Shown: piece by piece, positions 8,184-55,245 of the stretch | Numbering within the stretch: the stretch's first letter is position 1 | Layout of the letters: every line of letters begins with the position of its first letter | NCBI RefSeq assembly: GCF_000026545.1 | Contig: NC_011601.1 | DNA length: 64,000 nt | Strand: one strand, 5' to 3' | From: Escherichia coli O127:H6 str. E2348/69 | Lineage (GTDB): Bacteria > Pseudomonadota > Gammaproteobacteria > Enterobacterales > Enterobacteriaceae | The notes under the pieces: model-generated | Database searches by the model: none | What the model was told of the DNA's origin: nothing | The model's input: the letters and a program-made list of their open reading frames with translations, nothing else | Program-made: the position numbers and the translations under genes

Positions 8184-10690
8184 TGCGGGATCCCCTCTGA
8201 GAATCTCTGGCGCTGTTGGGTAAGGTCGATGACGACAGGAGTTCCATCATCTTTCAGCAAATACCCAGTGCCGAGTTTCACCAGATACTGGCTATCTCCA
8301 TAGCTTTGCAGACCGTACTGGCCTGGCGGTGCTTTAATTCCTGCGCCAGTCACCTGAGTTTTCCATGCCTGATCAACTTGTTTATCAAATTGTTCGGCAG
8401 ACATCCCCCAAGGCAAAAGAACACTTCCCATGCCGTTATAATCGTGCACGCCACCAGTAGCTACGTTAACAGCCTGCTTCCATGTGTCACTGTCAACTTC
8501 ACCCGAAACCACACCCTTCTTCGCCATCACCCCAGCGTAATAGTCCTTTGCTATCTCATAGGCCATTGATGCACCCTGCGCGTCACCGGCAAACGCATCC
8601 TTCACCATGTCAGAAAACTCTAGTCGCAGATCGTTATCCTTCGGCATTGGTATGCCCTTAGCATCATCAGTTCCTTTACGAGCCGCGGCACCGGACAGGA
8701 TGGTTTGCGCTGCTGTTTCTGGTGATACAGAAACATCAGGGTTAAACCAGTTTTTCTCAGCTACCACTCCTCCTGGCTTATCCATCAGGATCCCAGCTAC
8801 TGCTGCTGATGGCGCATTGGTGCTTATCTGCTGAAGCGCTGACATATATACCTGACCGCCCCCGGTGCTCTGCCGAATGGTGTCGAGATATGCAGTCTGC
8901 TGAGAAACTGGTGCATCGCGGAAGAAAGCCCCGATCTGATTCGCCTCTTCTTTGGAAAAGAACGTCAGCGGCGTACCGTATGACTTAGCCAGATCTACAG
9001 CCTGAGAAGCCCGAAGGGAAATCGTCTGGCCGAAATTGTTCTGGTTGGTCATATCAATAGGCTTTGTTTGACCGGAAGAAAGTGAAAACTGAATTGGGTC
9101 TGCTTTACGTTGCGCAAGAACAGTACTGGCAGCAGAGACAACGGCGTCATAGGTTTGGGCGCGCGCTGCATATCCTTCGCCAGTTTCACCAGTATCTGGC
9201 TTCAGATTTTCTACTGCTGCCTGAATGCTGCTGGTCGGCATGTTGCGAAACGATCCTATGTACTGCCCTGCGATCTGCGTGTTGCGAAACTCGGTATAGC
9301 GTAGATTTCCCTCCCGCACGCCGTAGGCGGCGAGGAAGTCGTTCTGCGTAGGCGCGTTCGGGAAATCAACTCCGCGCATGTATGCCGCGCTGGCATCGCG
9401 TACGCGGCTGTCGATATTGGTGCGGTATTCAGCCTGCTGCTGTTTACGGATCTGGTCAGCCTGGCGAAGGAATGTCGCCTGGGCCTCCGGAGATGCTGCA
9501 TCGAATGCCGCATTGCCGGTATAGCGCTTTGTGCTGGTTGGAAGTTGAGAGAGGCCAATTGCCGCGCTAACACCGGTAGCAAGTTGCTGATCGCTGTACG
9601 GCTGACTGCCGTTCTCATGTTGGATAATGGAGGCACACAAAGCCTTTAGCGTATCAGGGTTTGAGGCATCAAGCGGCTGGTCAGGCGTCACACCGAGTTG
9701 AGCACATACTGCCTGAATATAGGCGTCAGTGTTGTTATTGTCAGACGGCGGTGCCCAGCGATTAATGATGTCGTTTACAGTATCAATACCCTGTCTCTGG
9801 TATGACAGCAGGTTGCGTCCAAGCGCCCGAATGCCGTGTTCTGGCGTTTCGAATTTTGCAAATCGACCATCATCACCGGTCTGGCCCACCCACGGATTGG
9901 TTTTGCTGTATTCGAGGTTTCCTGGGTTGTTGTTGCGAATGCCACGGGCGCTATCACCAGAACCACCTTCTGATACTGCACGGCGGGAACCAGTAACTGT
10001 ATCGCTTAACTCGCCATTGCTCTGGATGAACTCGATCGAATTATTTGCCGACCACTGAGAAAGGGAAGCATCGGCGACCTTCTCTTTGAACTCAATCTTT
10101 TTGGCCTGAATCTGTTCAGAACTCCAGCCATGAGCGGAGCCATAATCTTCGATCTGCTGGAAAGTCTGCTGGTTGTAGAGAACATAATTGGCATTATCAC
10201 CATAGGCGGCAGCAGCCAGTTTTCCGTTGTTCGCCAGAGTCGCCTGGAACTGACCTTCTTCATAGGCATTGAGTTGGCTTATCTCATGCCTGCCAGCCTG
10301 GGTGGTGAACTGAATGCGCTGCTGCTGAGCCTGCTGTATAAATCCAGCCCGGGCACCTTCCGGCAATGTCATCGCGATCTGCTCTGCCTGAGCATCGAAT
10401 TGCTGGGTATAAACCTGCCCCTTGCCAAGAGCGTTCTTACCCTGCATGTTTAGAAGCCCGGTATCCGGGTTGGTTAGCAGATCACTGGAAATCTGGCTGA
10501 GTTGCAATGATGCATCCTGAGCCTGAGCAACATCCGCGCGCTGTTTTGCCTGAGCAAAAACATCAAGTGCTTTACCACCAACCTGCGTCAGGGCATCTCC
10601 GATATTTGGCTGATCGAATGCCTGAAAACCAGGAGACTGAAACCCTCTGCTTTCGACCTGACGACCGGTGACTGTTGGTACTGTTGGCAT
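8180..10690 (-). CDS. Internal virion / ejection protein (836 aa)
   Basis: Large Gln/Ala-rich protein in the ejection-protein position; overlaps downstream gene by 4 nt. Confidence 0.45.
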   Translation of the reverse strand: MPTVPTVTGRQVESRGFQSPGFQAFDQPNIGDALTQVGGKALDVFAQAKQRADVAQAQDASLQLSQISSDLLTNPDTGLLNMQGKNALGKGQVYTQQFDAQAEQIAMTLPEGARAGFIQQAQQQRIQFTTQAGRHEISQLNAYEEGQFQATLANNGKLAAAAYGDNANYVLYNQQTFQQIEDYGSAHGWSSEQIQAKKIEFKEKVADASLSQWSANNSIEFIQSNGELSDTVTGSRRAVSEGGSGDSARGIRNNNPGNLEYSKTNPWVGQTGDDGRFAKFETPEHGIRALGRNLLSYQRQGIDTVNDIINRWAPPSDNNNTDAYIQAVCAQLGVTPDQPLDASNPDTLKALCASIIQHENGSQPYSDQQLATGVSAAIGLSQLPTSTKRYTGNAAFDAASPEAQATFLRQADQIRKQQQAEYRTNIDSRVRDASAAYMRGVDFPNAPTQNDFLAAYGVREGNLRYTEFRNTQIAGQYIGSFRNMPTSSIQAAVENLKPDTGETGEGYAARAQTYDAVVSAASTVLAQRKADPIQFSLSSGQTKPIDMTNQNNFGQTISLRASQAVDLAKSYGTPLTFFSKEEANQIGAFFRDAPVSQQTAYLDTIRQSTGGGQVYMSALQQISTNAPSAAVAGILMDKPGGVVAEKNWFNPDVSVSPETAAQTILSGAAARKGTDDAKGIPMPKDNDLRLEFSDMVKDAFAGDAQGASMAYEIAKDYYAGVMAKKGVVSGEVDSDTWKQAVNVATGGVHDYNGMGSVLLPWGMSAEQFDKQVDQAWKTQVTGAGIKAPPGQYGLQSYGDSQYLVKLGTGYLLKDDGTPVVIDLTQQRQRFSEGIPQ

Positions 10691-10702
10691 TTCTATGTCT
10701 CC

Positions 10703-11245
10703 TTATCGACCGGTTGGTGTGCCGATGGCAGCGCTGATCGGTGCCGCTTTGCTTTGAGTGAATGGTGACCACGTTCCGCCGCCCATCTGGTAAGCGCCGT
10801 ATGCCTGAAGTGGAGCAGTCAGCAGTGTGGTAAATGCGCCCATATTCCCCTGCTTGCGTGCTGAGCTGGCCTGAGCTTTGTAGTTTTCAGCCTGAACCTG
10901 AAAGCCATATGCTTCACGCTGAGCGTTATTAACCGTAGTCAGCGCATCAAGCGCGCCAAACTGAGCTGTATCGCCAAAGATATCAAGCGCTCCACCAGTG
11001 GAAAGATCTGCGCCAGTTGCGCCCATGGTTGCCGCCTGGGTGCCAGCAGCCTGGCGGTTACGACGACGAACCTCATCAGCCTGAGCATTACCACGGTTGA
11101 TAGAATCCTGTGCCTGTGCCGTGGCCACTTCTGCATTTTGCTCGGCTACAGCAGACGAATACTTACCTTGCTGGTACTGGTTGTATGCTGAAACGCCACT
11201 TAATGCGACACTGGCGCCAGCGAGAGCGATAGCCGGGCTGCACAT
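10703..11245 (-). CDS. Virion structural protein, Ala/Gln/Gly-rich (180 aa)
   Basis: Position between tail tube and ejection proteins; composition. Confidence 0.4.
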   Translation of the reverse strand: MCSPAIALAGASVALSGVSAYNQYQQGKYSSAVAEQNAEVATAQAQDSINRGNAQADEVRRRNRQAAGTQAATMGATGADLSTGGALDIFGDTAQFGALDALTTVNNAQREAYGFQVQAENYKAQASSARKQGNMGAFTTLLTAPLQAYGAYQMGGGTWSPFTQSKAAPISAAIGTPTGR

Positions 11246-11709
11246 TATTTTCTCTCCATGTGGAAACGGTGAAACGGTAGGTTTTTAATGCCGTATGGCT
11301 GAGGTTCATCGATGGTGAATCCCAGCCAGTGAAGCCAGATGCGCGCTGTGTGGTTGCGTGCATCAACATAATTTTCAAGATACGGGTAAACAGTCAGCAT
11401 TGCATTGACCACTTTTCCGCACCGACGCAGGAAAGTACGCTGGTATTTCTCCAGCGCGTCAGTGCCCACCAGCCATGGGATACCACTGCCGCCGATCATC
11501 GATGCCGGTGCTACGCCAAAGACAGTCACTACTTCACCGTTAATCAATCCGGCACAGCAAAATGTTGACGTGCGTAGACCGGTCTCCAGCACGCGGCGCG
11601 GACTCCAACCGTTGGTTGCCAGAAACTCATCGATATCAGCCTGGCGAACAAGCGGAATAATGGCTTCGATATGCTCTGCTGTAGCGGGTACGATCTGAGC
11701 TTTAATCAT
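11245..11709 (-). CDS. Hypothetical virion-associated protein (154 aa)
   Basis: ORF in continuous minus-strand operon. Confidence 0.4.
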   Translation of the reverse strand: MIKAQIVPATAEHIEAIIPLVRQADIDEFLATNGWSPRRVLETGLRTSTFCCAGLINGEVVTVFGVAPASMIGGSGIPWLVGTDALEKYQRTFLRRCGKVVNAMLTVYPYLENYVDARNHTARIWLHWLGFTIDEPQPYGIKNLPFHRFHMERK

Positions 11710-14186
11710 CAGAAGCCTCCGACGGTGAGGCGAGGCAATACAGCAAGAACAGAAAGCGGGAGTGGGTCAAGCTGGCGAACCTTAACGCGTCCGTTTTTAT
11801 CCCAGTTGCTGTCGAGTTTCACTTCAACCTTGCCTGTAGCATCATCAACAGGATCGTCGTAGAACTCAAATTCACGCTGCGGATATTCATACCAGGTTCC
11901 GCCAGGAGTTGTTGCCCAGATTCCACGGCTTGCGTTGACCACCATCGTGACAGTAGGAATGACCTGCTTTTTATCCAGCAGTGTTTCCTGCCCGTTGATG
12001 TTGATATCCAGTGTTTCGAATTCAGCGGTGATAGGCAATCCAATATGCACAACTGCACCTGGTGACTCCAGCGTGACTGAGCCACCAGTGACAACCTTCT
12101 GAGGCTCAACGCTCGCGTCTGAAAGAATGTTGACTGTCTGGCCTTCGAGATGCGACAGTCCGCTGAATGTCTGGCGCGCCATTTGCCAGTTAGTTGTGGC
12201 CACATTGCGAAGCGCAGGTGGCACGTTTCGATTGAATCGGACGGTAACCGCGGTATTGCTGGTTACAGAGATGATATCGCCTCGCAGCTCTTTAGCCACC
12301 GGTTCGTTGGTGTCTGGATCTGTTCCGGTATATGGGAACTGAATCTGAGCGCCTACATCAGTATTAACGAAATACGCACCACCGCTTACTGTAACCGGGT
12401 AATCAACCTGATAGTTCCAGTCACCGGTGCCTCCACTGATGGTCATTGTGCGTGATGATGTATTGCGCCCGTCGTAGCTCAGTCCGCAGTCTACAAAGAA
12501 TGCGTCTTCATCATTGGTGAACAGGCGACTGGAAAGGCGTTCGATGTAACGTACGGTCTGCCCATTGATATTACGGTTAACCACGAAGTAAACAGCATCC
12601 TCGCTGCCTTCACTGATTGAGCATGTGCTTTCGTACTTCCCGGAGCTGGATTGTGGTGCCCATGCGAAAACCTGCTGATCGCGCAGATAGGTGAGCACCA
12701 GCAACTTGCCGTCATCCCGAATGCAGAAAGCGCTGCTGTACGGCACAATGCAGAATGACCAGTCGACAATGCTATGCTTCTGGAACAGGTGGTTTGCCAG
12801 TATGGTCAGGTCAGTTCCCTGATATCCGTCAACGTCGAAAGAGTAGGCCAGATCGCGCACAACGCTGCCTTTCTCCTGGATGAACAACGCGATATTGGCC
12901 ACGGCGATAGGTGGTACGTTACTTGATCCGTTATTCCCCTGAGAGCTGAACGAGAACGCCGATGGCGTGAGGACCTTATTCTGGTCCCCGGATATCGTAT
13001 ATTCCCCGCCAGATGTCAGAGCGACCAGGTTACCAACATCAATAAGGTGACGGATCTCATTCACCTGACGCCCTGCGTAGGTGTAGATGATGCGATCGTC
13101 ATCCTGAATAGGGTTGTTCTTACCGAAGTCTTTATAGTCTCCGGTGCGGCTTGCCCAGATGGTTTGTGGATATGCGGTAGACGCGGCAAAGTACAGGCGC
13201 TGCTGGTAGTAAACAACGGTACTAGGGTAGCCGTTAACGCTGTTCCACGCATATTTCGCCCACTTATAACTGGCGTTAGCGGATCCAACAACCTGAGATG
13301 GAATGAACGAAACCACATCGGCAGTTGCTGTGAGGCCATCGCCAGACACTGCTGTTATTTTTGCAATGCCGAAACCGCTGTGCAGGTACTCCCACTGGAT
13401 CCCGGTATCATCTGATCCGGTACCGCCCCATCCATCCCAAGACATACCTTCAGTGTGAGACGGGCGAAGGGTCCCGGTCTTACCTGCAGTATTCGCGCGG
13501 TAGTAGTTGCTGTCTGCACGACGAACGTCGTTTATTGCTGTGGTTTTACTGGTTTCCCATACTGGGACGGAATCAACCGCGGGCTGCTCGAGATAGAACA
13601 GTTTTCCTACCTGTTCAGCACCGAAGATTGCAGAACTGGCCGTTAGTGTAATTGTTCCGGTGCTGGCGCTGGCGTAGACCTTCACAGTATCGTCAACGTT
13701 GATATCTTCGAACGGCCCGTTTTTGGTGGTGACATCGACGATCTGCCAGTTGTCGTGCGCATAGCGGCGCAGTTCTTTCGGAGGGTATGCGGGATGCACC
13801 AGCGTCAGAACGTCGGCGCTCTGCGTGAATTTAATACGGAAAAGGTCAGTGTCAGCATACGGCATCGCCAGCTCATAAATCACATTGCTGGTCGTCAGAA
13901 CATACTCGCCGTCTTTGATAACGCGCATATAGTTGTGCCCGAACTCCAGAGCATAGGTCTGTACGGTCGAGAACTGGAACGGGATTAACCGGCACTTGCG
14001 ATCAGGGTATTTAGCAGGACCAACAAAGCGCGTACCTGGCCTGTTCTCTACACCGCCATATTGGCGAACAATGAAGTTATCGCACTTGCGCAGTGCCACC
14101 TGATACTTTGACATATCAATGCGGCCATACAGTGACGGACCAATTTCACCACCGGCAAAGCTCGGTTGAATCCAGCTAAAAGCCAT
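11709..14186 (-). CDS. Tail tubular protein B-like (825 aa)
   Basis: Size and position after the tail tubular A-like gene match the T7 gp11/gp12 arrangement. Confidence 0.5.
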   Translation of the reverse strand: MAFSWIQPSFAGGEIGPSLYGRIDMSKYQVALRKCDNFIVRQYGGVENRPGTRFVGPAKYPDRKCRLIPFQFSTVQTYALEFGHNYMRVIKDGEYVLTTSNVIYELAMPYADTDLFRIKFTQSADVLTLVHPAYPPKELRRYAHDNWQIVDVTTKNGPFEDINVDDTVKVYASASTGTITLTASSAIFGAEQVGKLFYLEQPAVDSVPVWETSKTTAINDVRRADSNYYRANTAGKTGTLRPSHTEGMSWDGWGGTGSDDTGIQWEYLHSGFGIAKITAVSGDGLTATADVVSFIPSQVVGSANASYKWAKYAWNSVNGYPSTVVYYQQRLYFAASTAYPQTIWASRTGDYKDFGKNNPIQDDDRIIYTYAGRQVNEIRHLIDVGNLVALTSGGEYTISGDQNKVLTPSAFSFSSQGNNGSSNVPPIAVANIALFIQEKGSVVRDLAYSFDVDGYQGTDLTILANHLFQKHSIVDWSFCIVPYSSAFCIRDDGKLLVLTYLRDQQVFAWAPQSSSGKYESTCSISEGSEDAVYFVVNRNINGQTVRYIERLSSRLFTNDEDAFFVDCGLSYDGRNTSSRTMTISGGTGDWNYQVDYPVTVSGGAYFVNTDVGAQIQFPYTGTDPDTNEPVAKELRGDIISVTSNTAVTVRFNRNVPPALRNVATTNWQMARQTFSGLSHLEGQTVNILSDASVEPQKVVTGGSVTLESPGAVVHIGLPITAEFETLDININGQETLLDKKQVIPTVTMVVNASRGIWATTPGGTWYEYPQREFEFYDDPVDDATGKVEVKLDSNWDKNGRVKVRQLDPLPLSVLAVLPRLTVGGF

Positions 14187-14791
14187 TATGACAACCTCGC
14201 TGCTGTGAACTCATCTACCGGCGGTTGTGGCTCCTGTGATTCGTTCTGGCTATGTGAGCCAGCGCTCAGGATCACACGGTTGTACATCGTCAGTGCATTG
14301 TTACCGAGATCTGCGCTACCGGTCAGCGCCATATTAATTGCAGCAGCCAGACGCCAGGAAAGCGCCTCCATAAAAATGGCATCATACATATTGACGTCAG
14401 TAACCCGCGCCACGTACTTCAACCACGCTTTCGGCTGATCGGTGTAAATGAGCTTACCTGTCAGTTCCTCATTGGAACCGACAACATATTCAATGCGCTG
14501 CGCAGCGGTAGGATTACGTATGCCGGTCGGCATGATCTCAGTTATACGGACGCAATCAGATGGGTACTGGTAAGCGTACTGCCAGTCAGGAGGCGGGTTA
14601 TTGGTATCAGCCAGCGCCACGCGTTTGGTAGCAAAGTTCCAGTCGAAGTCAGCCAGAGCAGCATCACGACATGCATCAAAATGCAGGGAGCACTGCCCGG
14701 CCTCTTTGCTGGCTTCATTCAGGCTGTTAATGCTACGACTGTTGCCGATATTGCTCAGCGCGCGGTTGCAGATCTCGATAACAGAAGCCAT
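14186..14791 (-). CDS. Tail tubular protein A-like (201 aa)
   Basis: Size ~200 aa; N-terminal MASVIEICNRALSNIGNS resembles T7 gp11-type N-termini; position. Confidence 0.45.
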   Translation of the reverse strand: MASVIEICNRALSNIGNSRSINSLNEASKEAGQCSLHFDACRDAALADFDWNFATKRVALADTNNPPPDWQYAYQYPSDCVRITEIMPTGIRNPTAAQRIEYVVGSNEELTGKLIYTDQPKAWLKYVARVTDVNMYDAIFMEALSWRLAAAINMALTGSADLGNNALTMYNRVILSAGSHSQNESQEPQPPVDEFTAARLS

Positions 14792-15129
14792 TAATCATCC
14801 TCCCCACCGTAGAGAGTTTGCGCTGCTGACTTCGGTTGCTCGCCTGATACTGGACTGAGCGCCATATCAGTGATCTGCAGACTGGCGTTATGCTGCATTC
14901 CACCTTCCGCTTCGCGGGTAGAAGTTGAGCGAATAGTTGCCTTTGCGGTGATCATTACTTCAGTGCCAGCAGATTGAGGTGCTGCCTTTAGCTTGGCTAA
15001 CGTCTCGTTGTTCAATTCAATGCAAAGGCCCCACGGATAATCATCACGAGTCTGGGTTTTACCCTCCTCATCCTGATAGGTGTCGGTGCCGGTTTTGAGG
15101 TTTACCAGATCCATAACGGACTCCTGCAA
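14791..15129 (-). CDS. Hypothetical virion protein (112 aa)
   Basis: ORF with start/stop overlap to neighbours in structural operon. Confidence 0.4.
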   Translation of the reverse strand: MQESVMDLVNLKTGTDTYQDEEGKTQTRDDYPWGLCIELNNETLAKLKAAPQSAGTEVMITAKATIRSTSTREAEGGMQHNASLQITDMALSPVSGEQPKSAAQTLYGGEDD

Positions 15130-23968: not shown

Positions 23969-24025
23969 AAAACAAAGCCGCCATAGTCGGCGGCCATTGC
24001 AATTTATTGTCGATATCGTGACATG

Positions 24026-48662: not shown

Positions 48663-48839
48663 ATGGATATGACCATGCAGGAATTACGGGCTACTCTAAA
48701 CCTATCCCCCAACTATCCTGAAGAAAACCACTTTCTAGATGATAATCTAACGGAAGAACTCGATAATGAGGAAATTCGACAACATCTGGGAATAGATTCG
48801 GATTGGATGGATGCAGTGGACACTAGCCAGATAATTTGA
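48663..48839 (+). CDS. Small highly acidic ORF (58 aa), not in ORF track
   Basis: Manual translation MDMTMQELRATLNLSPNYPEENHFLDDNLTEELDNEEIRQHLGIDSDWMDAVDTSQII; GGAG upstream. Confidence 0.25.
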   Translation: MDMTMQELRATLNLSPNYPEENHFLDDNLTEELDNEEIRQHLGIDSDWMDAVDTSQII

Positions 48840-49020
48840 ATCCTAACTAACAAAAACGCTGTCTGCCCTCTGTAGATTGGCGCTCTGTAGTGTTTGTCTT
48901 GCTTGCTTTTGACACCAAGTCGCCTGTAACTATGATCACGGGCAGGCATGAGCAAACAGATAACATAAAAGTCTATTATGGGAAGTGATTCAAGAAATCA
49001 TGGTAATTCATAGATAACTA

Positions 49021-49059
49021 AAATAGAATAATAGCCCAAATCAAACTTGATGAGGGCTA
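49021..49059 (-). terminator. Possible terminator downstream of the two-gene cassette
   Basis: TAGCCC/GGGCTA stem (16-nt loop) with T-rich minus-strand tail. Confidence 0.3.
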
Positions 49060-49064
49060 TATTT

Positions 49065-49724
49065 TTAGTAATTGAATGATGTGCCATTCCCGTTAGTTAG
49101 ACTTTTTATGCTTTTTCTGAGGAATGGGTGTGTCATAAAACCGTTGACTCTCACACCGTAGACTGATAGAAAATTTTGGCATATAGGTATCAATTTTTTG
49201 CTATCATCCTTTGATGATTTTAAATCAATAAGTGTTGATATGTCTTGGTGTGTTATTAATTCTGTTGAAAACTTAAGCGCCAAGCTTTCTTTTGCGAAAA
49301 TTGGCGCTCGCATTTCTGCACTGAGTGATATAAGAATTGTCCTTACGCACCATGATATCCTTTTATTCATTAAGAATTTGTTTTGAATGTTATTGTTTTC
49401 AGCACATATAAAATGCAATAATTTTGTTGCAGTATCAATATCATCTGAATAATTTTCTTTGTATTTAAATGATGATGATATGCTTTCAAATAGCTCCTCG
49501 TTAAATATTGGCAAGCCCTCTTCCTTCAAGTGCAAGGCAAATAAACTCCCACCTTCCATTATTTTCTTCGCCAATGCAACAGGATACATTGCTATATTTA
49601 ACTTTCCTTTCACAATCATTTTGTAATGTAGGCCATCGTATATAGCAAACATATCCACATCAGATGCCTCAGTTTGATCTCCACGAGCAGTGCTTCCATA
49701 AATAACCAAAGATTTAATATCCAT
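49065..49724 (-). CDS. Minimal nucleotidyltransferase (pol-beta superfamily) with C-terminal helical domain (219 aa)
   Basis: GS-x10-DVD motif (LVIYGSTARGDQTEASDVDMFAIY); start 1 nt after upstream stop; ~30% GC. Confidence 0.6.
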   Translation of the reverse strand: MDIKSLVIYGSTARGDQTEASDVDMFAIYDGLHYKMIVKGKLNIAMYPVALAKKIMEGGSLFALHLKEEGLPIFNEELFESISSSFKYKENYSDDIDTATKLLHFICAENNNIQNKFLMNKRISWCVRTILISLSAEMRAPIFAKESLALKFSTELITHQDISTLIDLKSSKDDSKKLIPICQNFLSVYGVRVNGFMTHPFLRKSIKSLTNGNGTSFNY

Positions 49725-49725
49725 G

Positions 49726-50847
49726 CTAAGACCTTGATGTACATATTTTATTTATTAAAGTTGGTATTAATATACCATACCACCATACACCAATCATCAT
49801 GTTAATCAGGTGTATTGTTTCATCTAGCTGCCCAATACCACTGGTCGTGCGCTCTGTTGAATACTTCGTGTAACCTGTAAGAAGAGTTATATCAACTGCC
49901 TTCATGAATGCCCCAATAACATCACCGGATGATGTTATTGCATAGATAATCGTAAATACAATCATGATAAATAAACCAACAAATATACATCTGAATAAAC
50001 TCCCTCCCCAACCATTAATGAGACCTGATGTATTTATTATAAAATTCTCAATCACTGATTTTAACAGCAGTATGCTGTACCATAGCTTTTTTGTTACTTT
50101 TGAATTACTACGCTCGAAGAGTAGAGATTTCTGCTTAGATTTTTGTTTGCATTTGAAGTGAACCTCTACCGCCTGATAATACACTTCATCATCCGGAATT
50201 GTAGATAATGAATTAAGCAATATCTTAGAGCACTTTGTTTTAGTTCCATAGGACCTGTATTTTTGGTACTCAGGTGTTGTACCTTCTTTCTCACAAATAT
50301 CTTTATCTTGATTTACAAATAGCGCACCAATAAATTTACTTGGCTCGATATATGTATTATTTAACTTTGTTTCATTACCGGAATAAGATATATCCTTATA
50401 TGTACAATTATTAAACTGACAGTTTTCAAATGATGCCATTGAAAAACTGCATTCGATAAAGGTACAATCTACAAATTTAATATTTTTGAAATTTGCATAA
50501 CCAAAGCAAACCTTCCTGAACTCACAACTCTTAAATGTTATTCTTATTCCTTTGTTGTCACCATATATATCACACTCTGTAAATACATATCCTGAAAAGA
50601 ATTTATTTTTAAAATTTTCAGGTTTATGTTTCTTTGATAAAATCAATTTTCCTTCATAGTCTTTAGGAGTAGCTATATGCTCAGGAATAGTTAAGTCTAT
50701 CGCTACCTTTCGAGGTCCAGAGTTGTTTTTCCCGTTAATATTTAGGTCGTCAAGTCCCCATTTGATGAACTCTTCCAGATTAATGTTAGGATCATATGTC
50801 GCATCCCAATAATTTTTTATCCGATGCTGCCTGATGCTGTTGGCCAT
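49726..50847 (-). CDS. Pentapeptide-repeat protein with C-terminal two-TM, ion-channel-like domain (373 aa)
   Basis: Central tandem pentapeptide repeats; C-terminal hydrophobic helices FRCIFVGLFIMIVFTIIYAI and MMIGVWWYGILIPTLI flanking LLTGYTKY; AT-rich. Confidence 0.6.
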   Translation of the reverse strand: MANSIRQHRIKNYWDATYDPNINLEEFIKWGLDDLNINGKNNSGPRKVAIDLTIPEHIATPKDYEGKLILSKKHKPENFKNKFFSGYVFTECDIYGDNKGIRITFKSCEFRKVCFGYANFKNIKFVDCTFIECSFSMASFENCQFNNCTYKDISYSGNETKLNNTYIEPSKFIGALFVNQDKDICEKEGTTPEYQKYRSYGTKTKCSKILLNSLSTIPDDEVYYQAVEVHFKCKQKSKQKSLLFERSNSKVTKKLWYSILLLKSVIENFIINTSGLINGWGGSLFRCIFVGLFIMIVFTIIYAITSSGDVIGAFMKAVDITLLTGYTKYSTERTTSGIGQLDETIHLINMMIGVWWYGILIPTLINKICTSRS

Positions 50848-51659
50848 TTTTTAACCCACACAATTCTTTTGTTATGTATTTCAGGCTTTGTTAACGTTTC
50901 AGCCAGAATGCTGCACTGTCTGTATATACAAAAAACTGAGTATTGGTGCTATCGTCACCGGTAACTGGAACTTTTACACGGGAGCATCAACCAAATTCGT
51001 TCTTTCATTGTATCCGCGTTATACGTGCATTCAAGCTACAAGATGATGAAAAACGCCTGTGTCTATTCTAGCAAGTGAACCGTCGTGAGTTCAACAGACA
51101 CAAGGGGCTACCCTTCAACAGATCCTGCTCTATGGTTGGGGGCCCCCCTTCGCGTTATGCGTTCTACGTTCATAAATGTTCGCTATTGGCACATGTCGGG
51201 TGAAATACTTGACCAAAAACTAAAGTACACGTGCCTAAGCAAAATCTGAAACTGAGAGACTGGCTAGTCAGAGTCGAATTTTACGCAAGGACTCGGTTCA
51301 ACTCTTTGTTTGGCAGTCTCTGCTCCCAAAAATGGTTTCATGCATATGATAAACCTTTTAGATTAGATTGAGCTCAGGTCAACAATAGTGTCAGATCGAG
51401 CACAAATCAGCACTAATGATGCTACACATCGTTTAGCACATCCAATTTTAGCCACCTAAAATGCGTTCTAATGCGGATATATGTCTACCTGCAATTCTTT
51501 CACCACTTCACACCGAAAACCTCAAATATCGGCTCCTATTACGTTTTTTCTCTGGCTGGGATTTTTACACGTCGAGAATAGGGAAAACATCCCAAAAAAC
51601 GCTTACAGTATTGACGTTACGTTGCAGGTATTCTGGCTTTCAGCATTACAACGCCAATA

Positions 51660-51910
51660 TATATTATTGTTTTTAATATTGTTTTTATTTATCGTTATAA
51701 GATTGATTGTTTTTTATACATCAATTTTTCTATAAGAGTGAATCCTAAATATTGATATTTCTATGGGGTTGCCCTTCATCAAAATTGCGTTTTTTTCTAA
51801 GACTTTTGCTTTTTCATTGAGCTACGCGGATACGCCGCCTCTGGCGGCTTTCTCCCGCGACAGGTCACAATCGTCGAATGCGAGTCGCCGCCTTTGGCGG
51901 CTTTCTCGCT
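51660..51910. repeat. Origin-like region: AT-rich iterons plus duplicated hairpin next to rep
   Basis: TTGTTTTTA three times (51668-51713); CGCCGCCTCTGGCGGCTTTCTC (51832-51853) and CGCCGCCTTTGGCGGCTTTCTC (51884-51905), each a GCCGCC/GGCGGC hairpin. Confidence 0.4.
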
Positions 51911-51991
51911 ACTGACGTTTGAGGAGATTATGTTGTGGTTTAATGACTATTTTTGATTAAAAAAACCACAAATGGTCGCAAAACTCTACTA

Positions 51992-52990
51992 CTAATAGTA
52001 ACTGCGCATCCTTCTTTCTCTGGATATGTTCAAGCGCGCTTTTCTCAGCACCAGCAACAGCGGCTTACTTCTTAACAATTCACAAAGCGTTATCGCCTTC
52101 GGTGAGTACTGTCTGGCTTGCAGCGCCTCTCTACGCTCTACCTCTGCGGCTTTTCTGAGGGCTAGCGTTTGTAAGTTGTAGTATGTTTTATCGCTACATG
52201 TAACGATGATTGGTTTCACATGTGATCGTTCGGGTGAGTCAGCCAGTGTTCGCTGTATCCTGCGGCGCTGCGCTGGTCTTTTTGCTTTTGACGCTTCAAG
52301 TTTCAACTGCGTACGCCGTACTTCAAAGTATCCCGCTGCTTCTGGGGTTATGATCTGCGATGCGTGCGTTGCCCAATTACTGGATGACGCCCATACGGAC
52401 ACTGATAACCAGTCGTACGGGCTTTTTTCTGCTCTGGCATTAAACTCCTTAAGTTTAGTTTTACCTTTTGTAAGGTACGATAGGACTTCAAAACTGTAAA
52501 CGAATCTAACATCTTGATTTTTAATTAAATTATTGCGACCCTCATATGGCTGGCGCTTTACCCACGCAACCAGCAGGTCTCTCGCTATGCTCTCATCTGG
52601 AACTTTCACAATCATGTGTAAATGTAGGGTATCCTGAAACGCCGCCCACTCAACACAATATATCCACGGAATACTGCGTCTCGTAAGCGAGCGTGTGAAT
52701 GTGGTTATCGCCGTTTTCAAAGTCTCCGGCGTGATGCACTGTGCTGGGCGTAAGGTCAGCAAATATACGTTTCCACCTTGTGTAGCATCCAGATCGATAG
52801 AGAGTAGACGTCTTTTGAAGGCTCTAAGCCTGTCAATCGAAAAAGCCACTTTGCGCTTTCTGATGTGGCTGTTTGGGCTTGTTTTCTTTCTTTGCTTGTT
52901 TTGGTTGCGTGGTTTCATGTAAGCGTCAACAAATGCACCACGCTTGCGCACGATGTATTGTTCAGCGCGATCCCCGTGATATAATTTCAT
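51992..52990 (-). CDS. Rolling-circle-type (HUH) replication initiator (332 aa)
   Basis: HUH-like motif TLHLHMIVKV and downstream Tyr motif VLSYLTKGKTK; basic C-terminus. Confidence 0.5.
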   Translation of the reverse strand: MKLYHGDRAEQYIVRKRGAFVDAYMKPRNQNKQRKKTSPNSHIRKRKVAFSIDRLRAFKRRLLSIDLDATQGGNVYLLTLRPAQCITPETLKTAITTFTRSLTRRSIPWIYCVEWAAFQDTLHLHMIVKVPDESIARDLLVAWVKRQPYEGRNNLIKNQDVRFVYSFEVLSYLTKGKTKLKEFNARAEKSPYDWLSVSVWASSSNWATHASQIITPEAAGYFEVRRTQLKLEASKAKRPAQRRRIQRTLADSPERSHVKPIIVTCSDKTYYNLQTLALRKAAEVERREALQARQYSPKAITLCELLRSKPLLLVLRKARLNISRERRMRSYY

Positions 52991-53042
52991 TGCGAATATG
53001 TTCCTAAAATTACCCGCCTGGCAGGGCGGGTTTTTTTATGTC

Positions 53043-53432
53043 TTACAGGTACTTTTCCCCAATTGCTTGCGTTATCTCTGAGAACGACGATTCAGACACG
53101 TCCCCTCTGATCCCCCTAAGTATTCGTAACGCAGACTCAACCTTGCGTAATATCTTCGTGTATCTTGCATTGGTGCGCCATATACAAAGCATTCCCGCTT
53201 TGTCGAGTCGGTATTTTACCAAATCCCTTTCAGGAATGTGATATGCACCATCCATGCGCTGTTCGACGGGGATACCCCAGTCATTACGTAACAGAGTTAA
53301 AACACGGCTGCGCTCATGTCCACCAGCAGAAGATAAGTACCTGTCAAATTGGGTTGGGGTGAGGCTATGACCATCTAACAGAATATCGCGGATCTGTGCG
53401 GTAGCTTGGTTTCGTGTCAATGCTTTCATCAT
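53043..53432 (-). CDS. Hypothetical protein (130 aa from ATG at 53432)
   Basis: Track ORF (231 aa) trimmed because its N-terminal third overlaps the AlpA-like gene in another frame. Confidence 0.4.
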   Translation of the reverse strand: MMKALTRNQATAQIRDILLDGHSLTPTQFDRYLSSAGGHERSRVLTLLRNDWGIPVEQRMDGAYHIPERDLVKYRLDKAGMLCIWRTNARYTKILRKVESALRILRGIRGDVSESSFSEITQAIGEKYL

Positions 53433-53439
53433 TTGCCCC

Positions 53440-53622
53440 TTACAGAAACCGGGCTGCGAATTGGTCGAGATCTGCAACCAACCATACTCTGCGCTTTCTG
53501 CCGTTGATAGACTGGACGGTGCAAGTCGGAAAAGCTGGAATGTAACGCTTATATTGGTAAAAGCGTGATAGACAAACGCCAAGATATTGCGCGGATTCTC
53601 GCGCGGTAAGGTAATTTTCCAT
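53440..53622 (-). CDS. Small AlpA/Xis-like HTH protein (60 aa)
   Basis: LTARESAQYLGVCLSRFYQYKR HTH-like segment; sits between int and rep. Confidence 0.45.
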   Translation of the reverse strand: MENYLTARESAQYLGVCLSRFYQYKRYIPAFPTCTVQSINGRKRRVWLVADLDQFAARFL

Positions 53623-53824
53623 AATAACGATCCATGTTTATGTTTTGTCCACATTATGGGGCATCCTGCCCCATAAATACTGTACATAATTTTTTCAATT
53701 ATCCCAAGTCTACAACCAAAAAATCTCCCGCGTAGCAATCCCTATAGTTCGCCCTTGTTCTGTTTCAATTTCATATACGCTAGCTCCACACAAGCTGTAT
53801 CGCCACCATAATTTCGATCTCCGG

Positions 53825-55087
53825 CTAATTACAGTTACTATATTTTTTCATGGGGACGACGTTGTAATCTTCACCACTTTCCAGCGTAACCAGCAGTTCA
53901 GCCCACTGCTCCAATGCAGCTTTTCTCTCTTCAAAATAGTGGTGGCGATTATAAATACCTTCAACACCGGGTATTTTATGATTAAGACATCTTTCAGCTA
54001 TTACAGGATCAATCCCCAATGCTGCCATCTGGGTACGCATCGTACGTCGTAAGTCATGAATGCTAAATGGCTCAACATCAGGCATCTCTTTTAATACTGA
54101 AGGCAAAACCATATTCAGCGTACTGCGACTAACGTGCGATGTAGTCCTCCCCCTCCTTGCCGGAATTAACCAGCGGCTATTACCAGCAAACAGACGGATT
54201 TCCTTGATCCATTCGATAACAGGATCAGCTAGCGGGATGTCTATCTCCTCACCATTTTTTGCTCGATCAGCAGGAAAATGCCAAACTTTTTCATCAAGAT
54301 TAAACTCCGACCACTCGGCAGCGCATAATTCCATCTTGCGAACCCCTAGCGCGAGAATGATTTTAAACGTTAACTCATTCTCTCTGCTAATACCCCGCCC
54401 CTTACGCAGAGCTTTAAAAAACATTACTAGCTCCTCACGCGTGAGTGCTCGCTTACGCCCTTGCTCTTTCCCGCCTGCATCTTTTGAACTAAATGAAATC
54501 GCGGGGTTTACTTCAATCATCCCGCGTACAACAGCATAATCAAAAAGGCGCTTAAGCATTCTTAGCACGTCATTCGCAACGGTAGGAGAACCGCGCTCTA
54601 ATACATTCTGCAAAACATAGTCGATATGTTTCGGGCGTACATCCTCAATTTTCATTTTGCCGATAGATGCGACAATGTTTTTTTGTAAGCTACTGCGAAA
54701 TAACTCCGGATGCTTGTAAGTGGGTTCTATCTGCCGCGAGTAATACTCAGCGGCTAAATCTGATACTCGTTTTGCGTTCTTTTGCGCTTCAATCTTTTCC
54801 AATGCTTCAGCTTTTCGCTTCTGTTTCTCTCCTGCTACGTCATAACCAAGAGAAACACGGGCTGCCAGTTCTCTGGCGACCTCTCTTGCTTTTGCAAGAG
54901 AGAAATCAGTATACGAACCAATCAGCACAACTCGCGATTTTCCGCCTAACTTGTAACGAAAGCGCCAGTTAGGGAGTTTGTCACTTTTCCTAAATCGAAG
55001 ATAAAGCCCGTTTCCGTCTGCCTTACCTTCGAATCTCTCATCGGATTTAATCCAAGCTTTGATTTGTAGGTCAGTTAATTTTGCCAT
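53825..55087 (-). CDS. int: Tyrosine integrase (P4-type)
   Basis: MAKLTDLQIKAWIKSDERFEGKADGNGLYLRFRKSDKLPNWRFRYK arm-binding N-terminus; HDLRRT...Y catalytic region; ATG at 55087 with GGTG RBS. Confidence 0.8.
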   Translation of the reverse strand: MAKLTDLQIKAWIKSDERFEGKADGNGLYLRFRKSDKLPNWRFRYKLGGKSRVVLIGSYTDFSLAKAREVARELAARVSLGYDVAGEKQKRKAEALEKIEAQKNAKRVSDLAAEYYSRQIEPTYKHPELFRSSLQKNIVASIGKMKIEDVRPKHIDYVLQNVLERGSPTVANDVLRMLKRLFDYAVVRGMIEVNPAISFSSKDAGGKEQGRKRALTREELVMFFKALRKGRGISRENELTFKIILALGVRKMELCAAEWSEFNLDEKVWHFPADRAKNGEEIDIPLADPVIEWIKEIRLFAGNSRWLIPARRGRTTSHVSRSTLNMVLPSVLKEMPDVEPFSIHDLRRTMRTQMAALGIDPVIAERCLNHKIPGVEGIYNRHHYFEERKAALEQWAELLVTLESGEDYNVVPMKKYSNCN

Positions 55088-55111
55088 TACGAACACCTGA
55101 ATACGTTACAT

Positions 55112-55206
55112 CGGGTACGCAAAGCCATCGTCACCGTGTACCCAATTTCTAACACCGTGTACCCAAACCGCAAGAACCTCTCTTTGGGTACACTTTTGTG
55201 TACACA
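55112..55206. promoter_or_regulatory. Cluster of GTAC-core direct and inverted repeats upstream of int
   Basis: CACCGTGTACCCAA twice (55132-55145, 55153-55166, 21-bp period); TGGGTACACttTTGTGTACACA (55185-55206), also found at 47924-47945. Confidence 0.4.
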
Positions 55207-55245
55207 ATATCTTGCATCTTTATGAACTGTTATGACAACTAGTGA

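Follow-up and report, generated by a model that had tools for sequence, protein, structure and literature searches.

The window, that is, the whole stretch of DNA analysed here (64,000 nucleotides), matched the chromosome of Escherichia coli O127:H6 E2348/69 with 100% identity. Between der and the sinH region it contains a small integrative island. On the minus strand, the island genes follow in the order int, a small winged-helix protein, a 332-aa rep, 1.1 kb without annotated genes, HalA/HalB, and an AlpA-like gene:

47924..55223: integrative island carrying the module described below, 7.3 kb
53825-55096, minus strand: tyrosine integrase gene int
53043-53432, minus strand: winged-helix protein gene, ~129 aa, just upstream of rep (annotated to 53654 in E2348/69)
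51992-52990, minus strand: Rep-type HUH nuclease gene (rep)
49065-50847, minus strand: Hailong defence pair HalA/HalB (NCBIfam), the cargo
47959-48558, minus strand: AlpA-like gene

The two copies of a 39-nt imperfect direct repeat (77%; 47924-47962 and 55185-55223) are candidate attL and attR sites and mark the probable ends of the island. Two exact copies of CACCGTGTACCCAA next to int (55132-55145 and 55153-55166) look like arm-type sites. In the cargo, HalA scored 295 bits, above its cut-off, and HalB 187.7 bits, just below the cut-off of 190. Of 5426 complete E. coli genomes, only 18 had the element. Three sister islands that we retrieved occupy the same der/yfgJ site and have int, the small protein, rep, the non-coding stretch and alpA in common with the E2348/69 island. 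Their cargo differs, and consists of a DncV-like cyclase pair, an AAA-ATPase with DUF2357, or an unknown pair. The der/yfgJ site is a hotspot for defence cargo on a tiny integrase element.

The Rep HUH motifs are present and invariant among the relatives, with HUH at residues 123-125 and the Tyr at residue 172, and the protein has a genuine HUH fold. HUH before Tyr is the Rep topology; relaxases of the MOBF/P/Q/V families have the Tyr N-terminal to HUH, an order not found in Rep. The best structural neighbours of Rep are replication nucleases. All eight aligned Reps matched PF23343 (REP_ORF2-G2P), a domain of plectrovirus/inovirus-type replication proteins, with marginal scores (27.1 bits for the E2348/69 Rep, versus a cut-off of 27.8). 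No relative of Rep was found to be encoded by any phage in INPHARED, and a PDB sequence search with the Rep profile gave zero matches. The family is small, with 14 representatives in a full HMMER scan; a word-indexed protein search gave the near-identical Rep cluster only. For the locus search, the alignment of eight Rep sequences was too divergent, and an alignment of three sequences worked.

The partner protein is 129 aa long in the sister islands and annotated with 203 aa in E2348/69, where the mechanical ORF has 231 aa. The upstream in-frame extension in E2348/69 is probably an annotation artefact. A partner of ~128 aa is kept upstream of rep in every lineage, with 30-59% identity, higher than that of Rep itself. 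The model of the protein (pLDDT 92) has a winged-helix domain followed by long helices. As modelled, it fits a CopG-like regulator or origin-binding protein, or else a relaxosome accessory factor.

The first-pass annotation had placed an origin-like module with hairpins downstream of rep, and the placement is correct, since rep is encoded on the minus strand and the hairpins lie past its stop. Alignment of four E. coli island variants showed that the shared sequence ends at ~51545, with different cargo beyond. Within these limits, the following features were distinguished, in the direction of rep transcription:

51545..51997, minus strand: whole conserved non-coding module, ~450 bp, from the rep stop codon to the variable-cargo boundary
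51986..51997, minus strand: TATTAGTAGTAG block, last Tyr codon plus three in-frame TAG codons
51933..51971: 9-bp inverted repeat TTGTGGTTT / AAACCACAA with 21-nt spacer, one arm mutated in ST70 and AH50
51880..51909: distal two-tier hairpin, on the rep strand GCGAG / GCCGCC-aaa-GGCGGC / CTCGC, contains the second 22-mer
51825..51859: proximal two-tier hairpin, on the rep strand CGCGG / GCCGCC-aga-GGCGGC / CCGCG, contains the first 22-mer
51790..51805, minus strand: invariant 16-mer AAGTCTTAGAAAAAAA, candidate nick/recognition sequence, exact or with one Y change in all lineages
51771..51777, minus strand: GAAGGGC block (family form GAWGGGC), always 12 nt after the 16-mer
51731..51736, minus strand: CTTATA block, always 70-71 nt after the motif start
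51666..51715, plus strand: AT-rich stretch with ATTGTTTTT three times
51611..51626, minus strand: TGCAACGTAACGTCAA block, TTGACGT-type, shared by Klebsiella plasmids with 1-2 mismatches
51591..51602, minus strand: GCGTTTTTTGGG block, with related T-run blocks in L007, L002 and L003 by by-eye comparison

Among the E. coli variants, the hairpins and the core are 95-99% identical, equal to the rep coding sequence and above its third codon positions. The AT-rich stretch is the least conserved part of the module (70-83% identity). This stretch had been annotated in the first pass as carrying three TTGTTTTTA iterons. Two copies are indeed exact (51667 and 51679); the third (51707) reads TTGTTTTTTA, with an extra T, and the AT-rich repeats are not present in the Klebsiella relatives. 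The 9-mer ATTGTTTTT occurs exactly three times in a stretch with 82% A+T, where shuffles gave P = 0.015 for three copies of some 9-mer, so that its repetition is only modestly unusual. Iteron-type origins have at least three conserved direct repeats of ~17-22 bp; only 9-mers were found here. Rather than a set of iterons, the AT-rich stretch would at most be a spacer that melts or bends easily.

The twice-repeated, hairpin-forming 22-mer of the first-pass annotation is real. Its copies, CGCCGCCTCTGGCGGCTTTCTC at 51833-51854 and CGCCGCCTTTGGCGGCTTTCTC at 51886-51907, agree at 21 of 22 positions and start 53 nt apart. The pattern GCCGCCWNWGGCGGC matched exactly only at these two sites in the 64 kb; when up to one mismatch was allowed, there were 3 matches versus 0.06 expected, the third being a one-mismatch match at 23977. 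In the 189 nt that separate rep from the motif, perfect GC-rich stems (at least 5 bp, 3-nt loop) were observed twice, versus 0.034 times expected from dinucleotide shuffles (P about 0.0005). In the single-stranded DNA fold (z = -4.0), each 22-mer forms the top of a longer two-tier hairpin. Both hairpins have the same orientation on the same strand. They lie 86-170 nt beyond the rep stop codon, and 28 and 81 nt 5' of the invariant 16-mer on the rep strand.

Comparison with homologous elements, which the first-pass annotation had proposed, showed the blocks of the module to be homologous downstream of Reps that are only 21-35% identical, and identified as the most conserved element the 16-mer, which the first pass had missed. 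Besides the E. coli islands, the carriers include a metagenome contig (L007), a second E. albertii element (L013), and small Klebsiella plasmids (L002, L003, L018, L019 and L021). When plasmids were searched at the DNA level, the module had no match, and the plasmid relatives were reached only via the Rep protein and later via the motif. IMG/VR and JGI metagenomes were scanned with the pattern AAGTCYTAGAAAAAAA-N12-GAWGGGC (23 specified bases), which gave 31 loci. A Rep homologue was encoded directly upstream on the same strand in 26 of them, and three had too little upstream DNA to judge. The remaining two, on metagenome contigs L030 (3005) and L037 (10052), have the full module without rep. 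Both are rearranged or decayed elements in which rep has been lost: homology sets in 28 nt short of the rep stop, next to a fragment of an inverted integrase gene. The recombinase differs by carrier, being a tyrosine integrase in islands and a serine resolvase in plasmids. With such linkage, and with recombinases and cargo varying, the module is tied to rep and not to the recombinase or the cargo. The association is not without exceptions: L008 and a Citrobacter element (L012) have an intact Rep and no 16-mer at the expected place. L052, an integrase island whose Rep is 34% identical by tblastn, has kept the motif.

The 16-mer has the consensus AAGTCYTAGAAAAAAA on the rep strand and is unique in the window. 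Across the family, the blocks follow on the rep strand in the order GC hairpins, AAGTCYTAGAAAAAAA, GAWGGGC, CTTATA, TTGACGT-type block, and TGCAACGTAA[CG]GTCAA followed by a T-run. Spacing is kept as well, with GAWGGGC at +29 and CTTATA at +70/71 relative to the motif. In plasmid L002, a cargo gene sits between the TGCAACGTAACGTCAA-type block and the core. The TATTAGTAGTAG block at the other end of the module is conserved at the DNA level, also in L018 and L008, where it does not code for protein; in L052, a 50-nt unit begins with this block, overlaps the rep stop and is present as a tandem duplicate. Judging from this pattern, the block may be a second recognition site. For the invariant core we found no consensus secondary structure (-2.4 kcal/mol, no covariation), so that its conservation is one of sequence, in keeping with recognition or nicking by a protein.

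We also considered that the region might encode a small RNA or a 50-aa ORF (51763-51915, plus strand). The ORF does exist, and the plus-strand RNA fold has two strong hairpins. However, a 1-nt deletion frameshifts the ORF in AH50, and by eye the equivalent frame in L007 stops inside the motif, so the ORF was rejected. The RNA fold had a z-score of only -1.65, no Rfam match was found in 51500-52000 at E up to 1, and the core lacks consensus structure, making a coding or RNA role very improbable.

More weight attaches to the possibility that the module is transcriptional punctuation, with hairpins that terminate or stabilise transcripts in the interval from rep to the variably oriented cargo, and with a core that acts as a promoter or operator bound by the winged-helix protein. 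TTTCTC follows each hairpin on the plus strand, the cargo converges on rep in E21845, CTTATA is TATAAG on the opposite strand, the DNA-binding partner is conserved, and the TTGACGT-type motifs, which are palindromic in L019, are operator-like. Nevertheless, the terminator scan did not call the hairpins, and a GC-rich hairpin with an immediate U/T run, as in intrinsic (Rho-independent) terminators, was not found. There is no T-run on the rep strand, and in the other lineages (Klebsiella, L007) there is none on either strand. The first pass had named a role of the hairpins as terminators only as the outcome that would speak against an origin; they are not convincing terminators. A sigma-70 promoter at TATAAG was rejected, because its distance from TTGAC, read by eye, is 20 nt in Klebsiella, the -35 element is poor here, and a scan found no promoter in 51545-51997. 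Invariance of the 16-mer across Reps that differ so widely exceeds usual promoter conservation, and the core stays with rep irrespective of cargo orientation. We therefore regard punctuation as an improbable explanation of the module.

TTGACGT-type motifs occur in both orientations in the module (51611-51626 and 51718-51724), and also in L019 and L018 just after CTTATA. In L019 they form the perfect palindrome TTGACGTTAAAACGTCAA. The winged-helix protein may use them as its operator.

The geometry of the hairpins recurs across lineages: the inner stem has 5-6 bp, the loop 3 nt, and the hairpins lie 28-40 and 72-81 nt 5' of the motif, with further hairpins at 139-162 nt in the Klebsiella lineage. 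Equivalents of the proximal hairpin with different stems are located 40 nt from the motif in the L007/L013 lineage and 29-32 nt from it in the Klebsiella lineage. The stems vary by lineage (GCCGCC/GGCGGC, GAGCGC/GCGCTC, GGCGC/GCGCC, GGCGGT/ACCGCC, GGCGAT/ATCGCC, GGCGGC/GCCGCC), with compensatory changes at 5 of 6 stem positions in windows that had been pre-selected as hairpins. Outer stems and internal loops recur in the single-stranded DNA folds of all three hairpin lineages. The asymmetric internal loops and the recurrent two-tier folds speak for folding of a single strand rather than for a palindromic operator in double-stranded DNA, and structural selection on the hairpins is supported. 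L052 has the motif but no GC hairpins; in their place are two 50-nt direct repeats of the block at the rep stop.

The hairpins do not appear to be matched to particular Reps. Among Klebsiella plasmids, Reps with only 21-23% identity go together with hairpin regions of 75-86% identity and with identical hairpins, and L002 and L003 have identical resolvase and HTH proteins. Hairpin sequence thus follows the backbone or host, not the Rep lineage, which argues against the hairpins as determinants of Rep specificity.

By eye, the GGCGGCGAC-TCGC part of the distal hairpin resembles the lambda cosN sequence, GGCGGCGACCTCGC, and the island is small and has defence cargo, as in phage satellites; these points would fit a cos-like packaging site of a phage satellite. 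This reading is already largely refuted and has next to no chance of being correct: the lambda cosN 18-mer had no match in the window at up to 3 mismatches, the region is common to no phage in INPHARED, the homologous hairpins of other lineages are unrelated in sequence, and there are no capsid or terminase-redirecting genes.

The plasmid relatives bear directly on what the module may do. Every plasmid relative with the cassette also has a ColE1-type origin. Full-length RNAI-like matches (30-33 bits, against a Rfam gathering score of 47) were found at the same relative position in three plasmids, with a ColE1-type stretch in a fourth:

L002, 5551-5657, minus strand: RNAI-like match
L003, 1671-1777, plus strand: RNAI-like match
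L018, 2990-3096, plus strand: RNAI-like match
L019, 4613-5584: ColE1-type stretch

The DNA that flanks the RNAI-like match (350-540 nt) matches more than 5000 small enterobacterial plasmids with ~70% identity. L008 has weak ColE1-type traces. PLSDB gives no replicon type for the ColE1-type Klebsiella plasmids with the cassette. In pEC4365 (L020, NC_032098.1), Tn4401 with blaKPC-2 splits the rep homologue between residues 66 and 65 (parts at 4778-4975 and 14981..233), yet the plasmid was deposited as complete and circular. Together, the ColE1-type origins and the split rep indicate that Rep is not needed for the maintenance of those plasmids. The matches to RNAI and the ColE1-type origin contradict a dependence of the Klebsiella plasmids on this Rep. 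Of the first-pass reading, a conserved cis module that is linked to Rep, as would be expected of an HUH origin, is supported, whereas a replicon with vegetative replication from the module is not.

An alternative that takes these plasmids into account is that the module is an oriT, the Rep-like protein a relaxase, and the winged-helix protein a relaxosome accessory factor. The island would then be an integrative mobilisable element (IME), and the Klebsiella plasmids would be ColE1-type plasmids with an unrecognised mob cassette. The ColE1-type origin alongside the cassette in every plasmid relative and the dispensability of Rep for pEC4365 maintenance agree with this, as does the fact that the plasmids are typed "non-mobilizable" only for want of a known relaxase. 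The order int, accessory protein, HUH protein, cis site, cargo, AlpA is the IME order. Variable defence cargo adjoins the site, as it does next to oriT in a recent study, which also reported that RCR-type proteins can act as relaxases (MOB_T; bioRxiv 10.64898/2026.01.13.699239). IME cassettes of oriT and relaxase, including those with MOB_T, share with the present locus an integrase/excisionase, a single HUH-class nuclease, an accessory DNA-binding protein, a non-coding site with inverted repeats, and adjacent cargo. Unlike IME relaxases, however, the protein studied here has the Rep topology, with HUH before Tyr and not the order of MOBF/P/Q/V enzymes, belongs to PF23343, and lies outside the recognised MOB families. 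Its best structural neighbours point to replication, and no T4SS or coupling-protein gene is located nearby. In this specific form, the mobilisation explanation is possible though on the unlikely side.

In our best reading, the hairpin stretch is the centre of a portable three-part cassette, composed of the winged-helix protein, the Rep-type HUH nuclease, and a site of ~450 bp. Sequence comparison suggests that the module may be a cis site nicked by the HUH protein, namely a rolling-circle origin and/or oriT; we hold this view tentatively, with somewhat less than even confidence. We give vegetative replication and a role as oriT or in mobilisation about equal chances. In favour of replication are the Rep-type order of the motifs and the structural neighbours; in favour of oriT are the ColE1-type origins, the IME-like gene order, and the defence cargo abutting the site.

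According to this nick-site proposal, Int and AlpA would excise the island as a circle. The HUH protein would recognise the core (AAGTCYTAGAAAAAAA, N12, GAWGGGC, and CTTATA further on), nick one strand there, and prime rolling-circle synthesis, so that the core would be the nick/recognition locus. The winged-helix partner may assist. On the rep strand, immediately 5' of the core, the 22-mers would fold into their two-tier hairpins when the DNA is single-stranded or extruded. These could be structural signals for Rep loading or, more likely, for host-dependent complementary-strand priming of the sso/ssi type, which we favour because hairpin sequence follows the host or backbone and not Rep. In the general model, HUH initiators nick at the dso, while host factors alone act at the sso/ssi (PMC5714925). 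Nicking followed by rolling-circle synthesis could raise the copy number of the excised island, bring about its transfer, or do both.

Initiators of the HUH class that have a nick site next to them are already a known kind. Like the dso of RCR plasmids and ssDNA phages (pMV158 RepB/CopG, pT181, pC194, phiX174, Ff gpII), the locus has an HUH gene close to a short conserved sequence and inverted repeats. A cognate initiator with HUH motifs I-III is encoded beside the module, and the short sequence that co-occurs with rep is the 16-mer with its spaced blocks. As copG precedes repB in pMV158, the gene for a small DNA-binding protein lies upstream of rep here, and as RCR plasmids place the sso 5' of the nick, structured DNA lies 5' of the presumed nick. 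In contrast to a classical dso, the motif is outside the hairpin loop, the hairpins are 28-81 nt away, and the site is downstream of rep. The hairpin-to-motif distance of 28-40 nt in three lineages exceeds that of classical dso or oriT sites. Self-sufficient RCR replicons differ also in that the carrier here is an integrase island or a ColE1-type plasmid. The ssi signals (G4-type, RSF1010 ssiA/ssiB, plasmid sso) share short GC-rich stem-loops with the module, and resemble it further in that the hairpin sequence goes with the host or backbone rather than with the initiator; ssi signals are functional in ssDNA, whereas the folds described here are predicted. The shared strand and orientation of the two hairpins set the module apart from them.

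Literature searches (pEC4365, yfgJ hotspot, motif string) found no description of the motif, the cassette or the plasmids in the searchable literature. It is conceivable, though doubtful, that the locus represents an undescribed portable "nick cassette" of ColE1-type small plasmids and integrase defence islands, which would amplify or mobilise the islands after excision. If so, it would be a new hitcher-element family with its own origin type, an invariant A-tract motif with upstream two-tier hairpins, and defence islands that are otherwise inert (at the der/yfgJ hotspot, those with Hailong, CBASS and other cargo) would gain a route for amplification or mobilisation. The cassette is compact, with two genes, a 450-bp site and a defined 16-mer. 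Small plasmids of Klebsiella and Enterobacter that are common in the clinic have the same cassette, among them a KPC-2 carrier typed non-mobilisable. If the HUH protein nicks the motif, this would explain mobility or copy control at the der/yfgJ defence-island hotspot, and small resistance plasmids might turn out to have a mobilisation route that has gone unrecognised. Otherwise, the module is no more than a regulatory region that has been conserved.

Two minor observations concern the surroundings of the module. A 31-nt direct repeat (81%; 49607-49637 versus 52603-52633) links the halB/halA junction with the interior of the rep coding sequence. Outside the island, the part of the window from ~4000 to 35000 is a long run of co-oriented ORFs with a uniform ~52% G+C and a prophage-like look.
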